Shown: positions 3,150 to 38,892 of the stretch, in pieces | Layout: each line of letters opens with the position of its first letter | Position numbering within the stretch: the stretch's first letter is position 1 | Assembly (NCBI RefSeq): GCF_003334305.1 | Contig: NZ_QOWS01000007.1 | Source of the DNA: Escherichia coli | GTDB lineage: Bacteria > Pseudomonadota > Gammaproteobacteria > Enterobacterales > Enterobacteriaceae | Reading direction: 5' to 3' (one strand) | DNA length: 64,000 nt | Translations under genes and position numbers: made by a program | The notes under the pieces: model-generated | Told to the model about the DNA's origin: nothing | The model's input: the letters and a program-made list of their open reading frames with translations, nothing else | The model's database searches: none

Positions 3150-3722
3150 TTGACACTGTCATCGCAACATTATCTGGTGATCACTGCGTTGGGTGCCGAT
3201 CGCCCTGGAATTGTGAACACCATCACCCGTCATGTCAGTAGTTGCGGCTGTAATATTGAAGACAGTCGCCTGGCGATGCTGGGAGAAGAGTTCACGTTTA
3301 TTATGCTGCTTTCCGGTTCATGGAATGCCATTACTCTGATTGAATCAACGTTACCGTTGAAAGGTGCCGAACTGGATCTTTTAATCGTGATGAAGCGCAC
3401 GACGGCGCGTCCGCGTCCGCCAATGCCAGCATCTGTCTGGGTTCAGGTCGATGTGGCAGACTCCCCGCATTTAATTGAACGCTTCACAGCACTTTTCGAC
3501 GCGCATCATATGAACATTGCGGAGCTGGTGTCGCGCACGCAACCTGCTGAAAATGAACGGGCTGCGCAGTTGCATATTCAGATAACCGCCCACAGCCCCG
3601 CATCTGCGGACGCAGCAAATATTGAGCAAGCGTTCAAAGCCCTATGTACAGAACTCAATGCACAAGGCAGTATTAACGTCGTCAATTATTCCCAACATGA
3701 TGAACAGGATGGAGTTAAGTAA
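3150..3722 (+). CDS. gcvR: glycine cleavage system transcriptional repressor (ACT-domain protein)
   Basis: ORF 3084..3722 contains the GcvR sequence; likely TTG start at 3150 giving about 190 aa (MTLSSQHYLVITALGADRPGIV...). Confidence 0.8.
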   Translation: MTLSSQHYLVITALGADRPGIVNTITRHVSSCGCNIEDSRLAMLGEEFTFIMLLSGSWNAITLIESTLPLKGAELDLLIVMKRTTARPRPPMPASVWVQVDVADSPHLIERFTALFDAHHMNIAELVSRTQPAENERAAQLHIQITAHSPASADAANIEQAFKALCTELNAQGSINVVNYSQHDEQDGVK

Positions 3723-4192
3723 TGAATCCACTGAAAGCCGGTGATATCGCACCGAAATTTAGCTTGCCGGATCAAGACGGAGAACAAGTTAATTTGACCG
3801 ACTTCCAGGGACAGCGTGTTCTGGTTTATTTCTACCCGAAAGCCATGACCCCCGGCTGTACCGTACAGGCCTGCGGCTTACGCGATAACATGGATGAGTT
3901 GAAAAAAGCGGGCGTTGATGTGCTGGGTATCAGCACCGATAAACCCGAAAAACTCTCCCGTTTTGCGGAAAAAGAGCTGCTTAACTTTACGCTCCTGTCT
4001 GATGAGGACCACCAGGTGTGCGAACAATTCGGCGTCTGGGGTGAAAAGTCCTTCATGGGCAAAACCTACGATGGCATTCATCGCATCAGCTTCCTGATTG
4101 ACGCTGATGGCAAAATCGAACATGTCTTTGACGATTTCAAAACCAGCAATCACCACGACGTTGTGCTGAACTGGCTGAAAGAACACGCCTGA
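3722..4192 (+). CDS. bcp: thiol peroxidase / peroxiredoxin Bcp
   Basis: 156-aa ORF with peroxiredoxin PGCT motif; ATG shares one nt with the gcvR stop (TAATG). Confidence 0.92.
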   Translation: MNPLKAGDIAPKFSLPDQDGEQVNLTDFQGQRVLVYFYPKAMTPGCTVQACGLRDNMDELKKAGVDVLGISTDKPEKLSRFAEKELLNFTLLSDEDHQVCEQFGVWGEKSFMGKTYDGIHRISFLIDADGKIEHVFDDFKTSNHHDVVLNWLKEHA

Positions 4193-4387
4193 TTACTTTG
4201 CTCCATTCCGTGCTGGCTGCGCTTGCGGCCAGCATACCTCACTTCTCGTGATCAAGATCACATTCTCGCTTTCCCCTGCGACACGGGTGTCGAATCCATT
4301 TTTTGCTGAACGTTAATGACCATCATTTTTGTACCGTTCAGAATCCAGTCAATACATAACTTATTGAATATATTGAGTTAATCAGAA

Positions 4388-4403
4388 TGGCATCCTTTAT
4401 GCA
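4388..4403 (+). promoter_or_regulatory. sigma-54 (-24/-12) promoter of the hyf operon
   Basis: TGGCAT-N5-TATGCA with GG and GC 12 nt apart, matching the TGGCAC-N5-TTGCA consensus, about 40 nt upstream of the hyfA ATG. Confidence 0.55.
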
Positions 4404-4444
4404 ATATGAAATGCAATGTTTCATATCATTTTCAAGGAGCCGAC

Positions 4445-5062
4445 ATGAACCGCTTTGTGGTGGCCGAACCACTGTGGTGTACAGGATGTAATACCTGTCT
4501 CGCTGCCTGTTCGGACGTGCATAAAACGCAAGGTTTACAGCAACACCCGCGCCTGGCCCTGGCGAAGACGTCAACACTCACTGCCCCTGTCGTGTGTCAT
4601 CACTGTGAGGAAGCCCCTTGCCTGCAGGTCTGCCCGGTTAATGCCATCTCCCAGAGGGATGATGCGATCCAACTCAACGAAAGCCTCTGTATTGGCTGCA
4701 AGCTTTGCGCCGTGGTCTGCCCATTTGGCGCAATCAGCGCTTCAGGAAGCCGTCCGGTGAATGCCCCTGCGCAATATGTTTTTCAGGCTGAAGGCTCACT
4801 CAAAGACGGCGAAGAAAACGTGCCGCCCCAACATGCATTGCTGCGCTGGGAACCGGGTGTCCAGACCGTCGCGGTGAAATGCGACCTGTGTGATTTCTTG
4901 CCAGAAGGTCCGGCCTGCGTTCGCGCTTGCCCGAATCAGGCGTTACGGCTGATCACCGACGATAGCCTGCAACGACAGATGAAAGAAAAACAGCGCCTTG
5001 CCGCAAGCTGGTTTGCCAATGGCGGGGAGGATCCCCTTTCCCTCACTCAGGAGCAACGCTAA
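4445..5062 (+). CDS. hyfA: hydrogenase-4 component A, 4Fe-4S ferredoxin-type subunit
   Basis: ORF 4406..5062; start at MNRFVVAEPLW after an AAGGAG RBS; multiple CxxCxxCxxxCP ferredoxin motifs; 205 aa. Confidence 0.9.
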   Translation: MNRFVVAEPLWCTGCNTCLAACSDVHKTQGLQQHPRLALAKTSTLTAPVVCHHCEEAPCLQVCPVNAISQRDDAIQLNESLCIGCKLCAVVCPFGAISASGSRPVNAPAQYVFQAEGSLKDGEENVPPQHALLRWEPGVQTVAVKCDLCDFLPEGPACVRACPNQALRLITDDSLQRQMKEKQRLAASWFANGGEDPLSLTQEQR

Positions 5063-8054: not shown

Positions 8055-9285
8055 ATGGAAAATCTTGCTCTGACGACGTTAATGCTGCCTTTTATCGGCG
8101 CACTGGTCGTTTCGTTTTCGCCACAACGTCGGGCCGCCGAATGGGGGTTTTGTTCGCCGCACTGACCACGCTGTGCATGTTGTCGCTGATCTCCGCGTTT
8201 TATCAGGCCGATAAAGTTGCCGTCACGTTGACGTTGGTCAACGTGGGGGATGTGGCATTGTTTGGCCTGGTCATTGATCGCGTGAGTACGCTGATTCTGT
8301 TTGTGGTGGTGTTTCTCGGTTTGCTGGTCACGATCTACTCCACGGGTTATCTGACGGATAAAAATCGCGAACACCCGCATAACGGCACGAATCGTTATTA
8401 CGCATTTTTGCTGGTGTTTATCGGCGCGATGGCGGGACTGGTACTCTCCTCGACGCTGCTCGGTCAGTTGTTGTTTTTTGAAATTACGGGCGGCTGCTCC
8501 TGGGCGTTGATCAGTTATTACCAGAGCGATAAAGCGCAGCGTTCAGCACTAAAAGCGTTGCTTATCACCCATATCGGTTCGTTGGGGTTGTATCTTGCCG
8601 CCGCCACGCTGTTTTTGCAGACCGGAACGTTTGTGCTTAGCGCGATGAGCGAGTTACATGGCGACGCACGTTATCTGGTTTATGGCGGCATCCTGTTTGC
8701 CGCGTGGGGGAAATCGGCCCAGCTACCGATGCAAGCGTGGCTACCGGACGCAATGGAAGCGCCAACACCGATCAGCGCCTATCTCCACGCCGCATCGATG
8801 GTGAAAGTGGGCGGCTGGCACTGGAGGGCAGCATCGCCTACATCGTCAACCACGCGTTCGCTAAAAGCCTGTTTTTCCTTGTAGCAGGTGCGCTGAGTTA
8901 CAGCTGCGGCACGCGCTTATTGCCGCGTCTGCGTGGCGTATTGCACACCCTGCCGTTGCCAGGCGTGGGTTTCTGCGTGGCAGCGCTGGCGATTACCGGT
9001 GTGCCGCCGTTCAACGGCTTCTTCAGTAAATTCCCGCTGTTTGCCGCCGGTTTTGCGTTGTCAGTGGAGTACTGGATCCTGCTGCCCGCCATGATTCTGC
9101 TGATGATTGAATCGGTCGCCAGTTTCGCCTGGTTTATTCGCTGGTTTGGTCGCGTTGTGCCTGGCAAACCGAGCGAGGCCGTCGCCGATGCCGCACCGCT
9201 GCCAGGGTCAATGCGCCTGGTGTTGATTGTACTGATTGTGATGTCGCTGATTTCCAGCGTAATCGCCGCGACCTGGTTGCAGTAA
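8055..9285 (+). pseudogene. hyfD: hydrogenase-4 component D (NuoM/N-like membrane subunit), disrupted by a frameshift and an internal deletion
   Basis: Coding signal is split over three frames: 8055..8165 (MENLALTTLMLPFIGALVVSF..., TGA after a G5 run), 8141..8884, and 8704..9285. The region holding the KRLLAxS(T/S)VEN(V/M)G motif present in HyfB and HyfF is missing. Confidence 0.75.
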
Positions 9286-17859: not shown

Positions 17860-17895
17860 AAAATCAGCCCGGCGAAACAGTTCGTCGGGCTGAAG
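17860..17895. terminator. bidirectional hairpin terminator between convergent focB and perM
   Basis: 12-bp stem (cagcccggcgaa/ttcgtcgggctg, one mismatch) flanked by an A-run and a T-rich tract. Confidence 0.45.
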
Positions 17896-32014: not shown

Positions 32015-32365
32015 AGATGCTCAGCAGAATCCCCCACATCCTGAAGGAGGTGTATTCAGACAGGCATCCCACCTGACTTCGAATGATGATTATTCATCAC
32101 TATAGAGAGCATTGATTCTAAGTGTCATATGAAAGTTCCAATTGATATATATCAAACAAAATAACCCTGATTAATGAATTATTACGTTTATCATGTTAAT
32201 TCATCATTATTACATCATCATTGTAAATAATTAAATTAACTTCCATAACATTAAAATATGTATCCACTGACGCTTTTTTACATAACGAAGAATTGACCAT
32301 TTTGTCCTGTTGTGCCTTAATGTAAGTACCGTCCACAGCGTGGGACATACTTCAAGGAACCTTTT

Positions 32366-37148: not shown

Positions 37149-38892
<1,744 letters not shown>

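Follow-up and report, generated by a model that had tools for sequence, protein, structure and literature searches.

The inverted repeat between bcp and hyfA of Escherichia coli is very probably the catalogued cAMP–CRP operator of the hyfA promoter

The inverted repeat GTGATCAAGATCAC located between the bcp and hyfA genes of Escherichia coli belongs, with a high degree of confidence, to the catalogued cAMP–CRP operator of the hyfA promoter, with CRP as a probable architectural co-activator. It was analysed within a single stretch of 64 000 nt, termed the window below. The CRP site upstream of the hyf operon is real, but it is already known and it is ordinary. What is added here to the published record is the conservation of the site across genera, its fixed 31-bp phasing to a second inverted repeat located downstream, and its decay in strains that lack hyf.

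The DNA from 4150 to 4500 is 100% identical to that of many complete E. coli genomes, in which the RefSeq annotation gives bcp followed by hyfA. The first-pass annotation correctly placed the repeat between these genes. In the window bcp occupies 3722–4192 and the ATG of hyfA is at 4445. The features of the region are as follows:

4210–4235, plus strand: hairpin, stem 11 bp, located 18 nt past the stop codon of bcp and with no T-run after it (RNA fold −20.9 kcal/mol; 100% kept in hyf-minus strains)
4247–4262, no strand assigned: cAMP–CRP binding site CGTGATCAAGATCACA, which contains GTGATCAAGATCAC; centre 4254.5, at −160.5 from the hyfA sigma-54 start (matrix, site table, SELEX-chip, ChIP-seq and conservation)
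4279–4292, no strand assigned: inverted repeat CGACAC-GG-GTGTCG (conserved across genera; mutated in the hyf-minus remnant)
4317–4332, no strand assigned: block TGACCATCAyTTTTGT (15 of 16 columns identical in E. coli, Citrobacter and Kosakonia)
4357–4369, minus strand: IHF-like site ATTCAATAAGTTA, with one mismatch to WATCAANNNNTTR, in the interval from the upstream elements to the promoter (consensus scan; TTGA core conserved)
4388–4402, plus strand: sigma-54 promoter TGGCAT-N6-TGC, the −24/−12 elements (TGGCA and TGC invariant in the alignment; RpoN SELEX)
4445–5062, plus strand: hyfA, the regulated target, with which the operon for hydrogenase 4 begins (list of open reading frames; RefSeq annotation of identical DNA)

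The hairpin at 4210–4235 is probably a structure of the 3′ end of the bcp transcript, and separate from the CRP site. A role of GTGATCAAGATCAC itself as an RNA element was rejected; no hairpin can form from a stem of 6 bp and a loop of 2 nt, and the search against Rfam families at E ≤ 1 gave no match.

The sequence GTGATCAAGATCAC is present as a single copy at 4248–4261. It comprises two 6-bp arms, GTGATC and GATCAC, flanking a non-palindromic AA, and the arms cannot be extended since C4247 lies opposite A4262. It had been described as a perfect palindrome at 4249–4262. These coordinates are displaced by one nucleotide (they read TGATCAAGATCACA), and the reverse complement of GTGATCAAGATCAC is GTGATCTTGATCAC, the symmetry being broken by the central AA. 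The core was also written as TGAT-N6-ATCA, which conflates two registers: TGAT and ATCA are separated by N4 (the FNR register), while N6 is the spacing of GTGA and TCAC (the CRP register). The remainder of that description is sound. There are two GATC Dam sites within the repeat, at 4250–4253 and 4256–4259, and the stated separation of some 130 bp from the sigma-54 promoter is close to the 135 bp measured from the centre at 4254.5 to the GG of the −24 element (4389–4390). As a bare inverted repeat GTGATCAAGATCAC is unremarkable, and not beyond chance. Repeats of the same 6+2+6 form are common in the window (25, compared with 15.3 ± 3.3 in shuffled sequences), so the repeat as such is not evidence of function. 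A 6-bp direct repeat TTCTCG, at 4243–4248 and 4263–4268, brackets the CRP site with a period of 20 bp.

The identification as a CRP site is based upon the longer sequence CGTGATCAAGATCACA, which agrees with TGTGA-N6-TCACA at 15 of 16 positions. The window contains only four matches to this consensus with one mismatch or fewer, against 2.0 expected. A position weight matrix was constructed from the 106 CRP ChIP-seq sites of Haycocks et al. 2015 (Table 1), from which the hyfA site had been excluded. Scanned with this matrix, as had been suggested in the first-pass annotation, CGTGATCAAGATCACA scores 19.0 of a maximum of 22.1 bits. This is the top score in the 64 kb, was reached in none of 200 shuffles, and is higher than that of 96% of the 106 sites. 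The second-best match in the window is TTTGATCTCGCTCACA at 37295–37310, with 16.0 bits. This is the known CRP site of guaB/xseA, found both in the ChIP-seq table, and hence in the training set, and in the published table of CRP sites.

The same site is found in the published data, both in vitro and in vivo. In Shimada 2011 (Table S4) CGTGATCAAGATCACA is entered under hyfABCDEFGHIJR-focB as a site of activation by CRP, at −160.5, with flanking sequences that match the window exactly; the rows of that table carry ECK identifiers, and are taken here to derive from RegulonDB. The catalogued site of hyfAp and the one described here are consequently the same object, identical in sequence and position and with no difference between them. 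Genomic SELEX-chip in vitro gave a peak between bcp and hyfA at the same site, recorded on the other strand (Shimada 2011, Table S3), and hyfA is among the known CRP targets recovered by SELEX in that study. In enterotoxigenic E. coli (ETEC) H10407, CRP ChIP-seq gave a high-confidence peak with the identical CGTGATCAAGATCACA, assigned to hyfA (Haycocks 2015, Table 1). Taken with the sequence match and the conservation, these data make the binding of a cAMP–CRP dimer at CGTGATCAAGATCACA well supported. A requirement for cAMP–CRP in HyfR-driven expression of hyf-lacZ was reportedly observed by Self et al. in 2004. The activator role assigned to CRP at hyfA is taken from that study together with the published site table.

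Related sites occur elsewhere in the literature tables. GTGATCAAGATCAC is also found near tppB in MG1655, as a predicted FNR site that is unbound, and there is a near-identical CRP-bound site in an ETEC-specific gene. In ETEC there is also a CRP ChIP-seq peak (CGTGATGGCTGTCACG) at fdhF, another promoter dependent on FhlA and sigma-54. Control of the formate regulon by CRP may accordingly extend beyond hyf.

The TGAT-N4-ATCA spacing within GTGATCAAGATCAC is the core of an FNR site. Anaerobiosis might therefore activate hyf by way of FNR at this element, whether it is a site for FNR alone or for both CRP and FNR. There are several observations consistent with this. GTGATCAAGATCAC agrees with the pattern TTGATNNNNATCAA at 12 of 14 positions. 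Exactly this sequence was predicted to be an FNR site by Myers 2013, with a PatSer score of 13.04, and FNR-dependent regulation of hyfA in earlier studies is noted there. The near-identical sequence GTGATCAAAATCAC at ppiA/tsgA, differing from GTGATCAAGATCAC by one base of the spacer, is bound by FNR in the ChIP-seq data of Myers 2013 (Table S6), and a CRP ChIP-seq peak is also listed at ppiA/tsgA. However, the same table has no FNR ChIP-seq peak in anaerobic glucose medium at GTGATCAAGATCAC near hyfA. On scanning with a matrix constructed from the 63 ChIP-bound FNR sites of Myers et al. 2013 (Table S6), GTGATCAAGATCAC was found to be weak, its 13.8 bits falling below 83% of the bound sites. 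An FNR half-site has T at the first position (TTGAT-N4-ATCAA). In the FNR register both half-sites of GTGATCAAGATCAC (GTGAT...ATCAC) have instead the CRP-type G, which occurs in only 10% of the bound half-sites. From specificity-swap studies by Bell/Busby and by Spiro/Guest, this first position is said to be the classical discriminator between CRP and FNR. Matches to the FNR pattern with two mismatches are moreover common, with 50 in the window, and the orthologous sites TGTGACTAATATCACA and TTTGACCGCGATCACA retain the CRP cores but not those of FNR. We therefore regard activation through FNR at this element as improbable. Thus the suggestion that a site of the CRP/FNR family controls hyf divides into two. 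CRP is upheld by the matrix score, site table, SELEX and ChIP-seq, while FNR is unsupported, with no ChIP-seq peak and with the G in both half-sites. The ChIP-seq datasets to which the first-pass annotation had pointed divide in the same way, with a peak for CRP in ETEC H10407, and for FNR a prediction with no peak (Myers 2013).

The top match of the FNR matrix in the window is TTGATATATATCAA at 32142–32155, a perfect FNR consensus and a perfect 14-bp palindrome. Myers 2013 (Table S6) places the same 14-mer between yfgF and yfgG and records a peak for it in FNR ChIP-seq. The 14-mer TTGACGTTGGTCAA at 8228–8241 is in Myers 2013 a predicted FNR site inside hyfD with no ChIP-seq peak.

The CRP operator is conserved beyond E. 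coli. A scan with HyfA using one genome per species gave 45 loci. The six closest are those of Citrobacter amalonaticus, three further Citrobacter species and two Kosakonia species, in which HyfA is 63–71% identical to that of E. coli and the gcvR-bcp-hyfA synteny is kept in every case. The bcp-hyfA intergenic DNA of Citrobacter and Kosakonia is largely unalignable with that of E. coli except in discrete blocks. These comprise the CRP site, CGACAC-N3-TGYCG, TGACCATCAyTTTTGT, the TTGA core in the IHF-like site, the −24/−12 elements and the ribosome-binding site. Within the four Citrobacter and two Kosakonia loci the CRP sites (TGTGATCGCAATCACA, TGTGACTAATATCACA and TTTGACCGCGATCACA) score 15.8–18.7 bits, with the cores retained and the spacer variable. 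The motif CGACAC..TG.CG is unchanged throughout six sequences, which represent three genera, and the distance from the centre of the CRP site to that of this downstream inverted repeat is exactly 31.0 bp in all six. From the CRP centre to the GC of the −12 element the distance is 144.5–146.5 bp across the three genera. Sigma-54 promoters were found in the orthologous loci as well. The more distant hyf operons, in Atlantibacter, Morganella, Providencia, Dickeya, Pectobacterium and Serratia, have no comparable CRP site (best score ≤9.4 bits), and the CRP input is thus lineage-specific and not essential to hyf.

Within E. coli the site follows the operon that it is proposed to control. The 40-mer around the CRP site is present in all of the 4298 complete genomes that carry hyf (4298/4298). 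In the seven variant E. coli loci examined, the 16-mer is altered at positions 6 and 7 only (CGTGACCAAGATCACA and CGTGATGAAGATCACA), and still scores 17.7–18.2 bits. In strain UCPROB-002 hyfA is annotated as a frameshifted pseudogene, and the CRP site upstream is intact. The whole of the hyfABCDEFGHIJR-focB operon is absent from 1128 of 5426 complete E. coli genomes, about 21%. From the alignment, the loss looks like a deletion of 13 584 bp between GCTGAA microhomologies at 4305–4310 and 17889–17894. A breakpoint only 5 bp from the CRP site was considered and rejected, as the alignment places the junction at the GCTGAA of 4305–4310 and a decayed remnant is retained. This remnant of the hyf regulatory region lies between bcp and yfgO, and is far more diverged than its flanks. 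In it the bcp hairpin (4210–4235) is intact. By contrast the left CRP half-site and the spacer are deleted by a 19-bp gap, which could have arisen by slippage between the TTCTCG repeats, and mutations are found in the inverted repeat downstream. No CRP match in the remnant scores above −0.3 bits. The CRP site is therefore kept only where hyf is present, and is tied to hyf and not to bcp. The loss of the site with that of hyf was probably a single evolutionary event.

These comparisons also bear on whether the element has some other function, or none. It could be imagined that GTGATCAAGATCAC is a Dam-methylation switch, given the two GATC sites within it, or else a chance inverted repeat at which the binding of CRP lacks regulatory consequence. 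Chance alone yields many repeats of this form (about 15 are expected in the window, where 25 are present), and many CRP sites detected by ChIP have no known regulatory output. However, GATC is not conserved as a Dam-dependent site would require. The orthologous sites have from 0 to 2 copies, and one copy has changed to GATG in a variant of E. coli. The CRP cores, by contrast, are fixed; the Dam sites are thus incidental. GATC often occurs inside canonical CRP sites, and the two in GTGATCAAGATCAC come with the CRP consensus. A search of the literature on Dam methylation at the hyf CRP site gave nothing relevant. Against a chance repeat, the distance of the site from the −12 element is constant to within 1 bp in all three genera, and the site disappears together with hyf. 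A methylation switch or an inconsequential repeat is therefore scarcely credible.

The inverted repeat at 4279–4292 is the nearest partner of the CRP site. A pattern scan had flagged it as terminator-like. Its conservation across genera, always 31.0 bp from the CRP centre, makes it more likely to be the site of an enhancer-binding protein. It probably belongs to the upstream activating sequence at which HyfR/FhlA would bind. The orientation of its half-sites (GACA...TGTC) has no obvious fit to the FhlA consensus TGWC-N6-GWCA (PMC7658346). The conserved block at 4317–4332 could be a second HyfR/FhlA site, or the site of another factor.

The promoter itself comprises TGGCAT at 4388–4393 and TGC at 4400–4402. 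SELEX with the RpoN holoenzyme gave one of its highest genomic peaks between bcp and hyfA (PMC8743547). In line with the IHF-like site, the predicted FNR site GTGATCAAGATCAC near hyfA overlaps enrichment of IHF, seen by ChIP-chip, and also enrichment of Fis (Myers 2013, Table S6). Transcription of hyfA would start at ∼4415. A start at 4415 puts the CRP centre of 4254.5 at −160.5, in agreement with the published coordinate. From 4100 to 4500 the hyfA strand has no predicted sigma-70 promoter that would place CRP at a canonical distance; the sole match in this interval is weak and on the opposite strand.

The sigma-54 holoenzyme requires an ATP-dependent enhancer-binding protein for its activation, and recruitment alone is insufficient. 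Since recruitment cannot activate this holoenzyme, CRP is most likely to be an architectural co-activator at hyfA. The following mechanism can be suggested. When glucose is absent a cAMP-loaded CRP dimer would bind CGTGATCAAGATCACA, its two subunits each reading one of the GTGA/TCAC cores on either side of the 6-bp spacer. The inverted repeat that probably binds HyfR/FhlA would then be centred 31 bp downstream of the dimer, some three helical turns away, which would place CRP on the same face of the DNA as the activator. The fixed three-turn spacing to a conserved inverted repeat suggests that CRP helps HyfR/FhlA to assemble, or shapes a loop assisted by IHF. Either the roughly 90° bend introduced by CRP or a direct contact might aid the assembly of the activator or the IHF-assisted loop to the promoter. 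The outcome would be the addition of catabolite control to the control of hydrogenase 4 by formate, pH and anaerobiosis. One aspect of the geometry counts against the architectural explanation. The CRP site is upstream of the presumed activator site, and so the bend would lie outside the loop.

Comparison with known CRP-regulated promoters shows what is ordinary about the hyf site and what is less so. It has the half-sites and 6-bp spacer of the canonical operators (TGTGA-N6-TCACA, as in lac and gal), and is near-consensus in score. Canonical CRP sites are centred at −41.5, −61.5, −72.5 or −92.5 of sigma-70 promoters and act by recruitment of polymerase, whereas the promoter of hyf is of the sigma-54 type, with CRP at −160.5. 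CRP is also required at another sigma-54 promoter, that of the propionate operon prpBCDE. The closest comparison is with the dctA, glnAp2, Pu and nif promoters, where the same regulator acts at a distance upstream with the same sigma factor (PMC3900584). There cAMP–CRP inhibits, which counts against activation at hyfA. The contact of activating region 1 (AR1) of CRP with the C-terminal domain of the alpha subunit of polymerase down-regulates these promoters, even from remote sites (PMC3900584). By analogy, CRP at hyfA might repress or 'poise' the sigma-54 holoenzyme, and so help to keep hyf silent. The inhibited promoters often have no strong specific site for CRP, while that at hyfA is near-consensus, conserved and listed as activating in the published site table. 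The hyf operon is notoriously poorly expressed in wild-type K-12, as repression would predict. Yet the requirement for cAMP–CRP that Self et al. are said to have found points in the opposite direction, and a strong site that is strictly conserved at a fixed phasing to the inverted repeat is a better fit to a cooperative role. We consider repression by CRP at hyfA to be very unlikely.

Activation by CRP may be stated in a stronger form. CRP could be a true positive co-activator of the sigma-54 promoter, acting from −160.5 in rigid phase with the enhancer complex of HyfR/FhlA as its partner (31 bp, three turns, invariant in the three genera). This is offered tentatively, as a possibility about which there is considerable doubt. 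If true, it would constitute a distinct mode of action for CRP, either contact with an enhancer-binding protein or bend-assisted assembly, and would be opposite to the inhibition described in PMC3900584.

The rediscovery of the hyf CRP site adds little, as it is already present in the published tables of CRP sites. Its residual value is mechanistic, as a clean and conserved case in which to ask how CRP could help, and not hinder, a sigma-54 promoter. For the organism, a strong input of catabolite control would explain, at least partly, the silence of hydrogenase 4 in glucose-grown E. coli.
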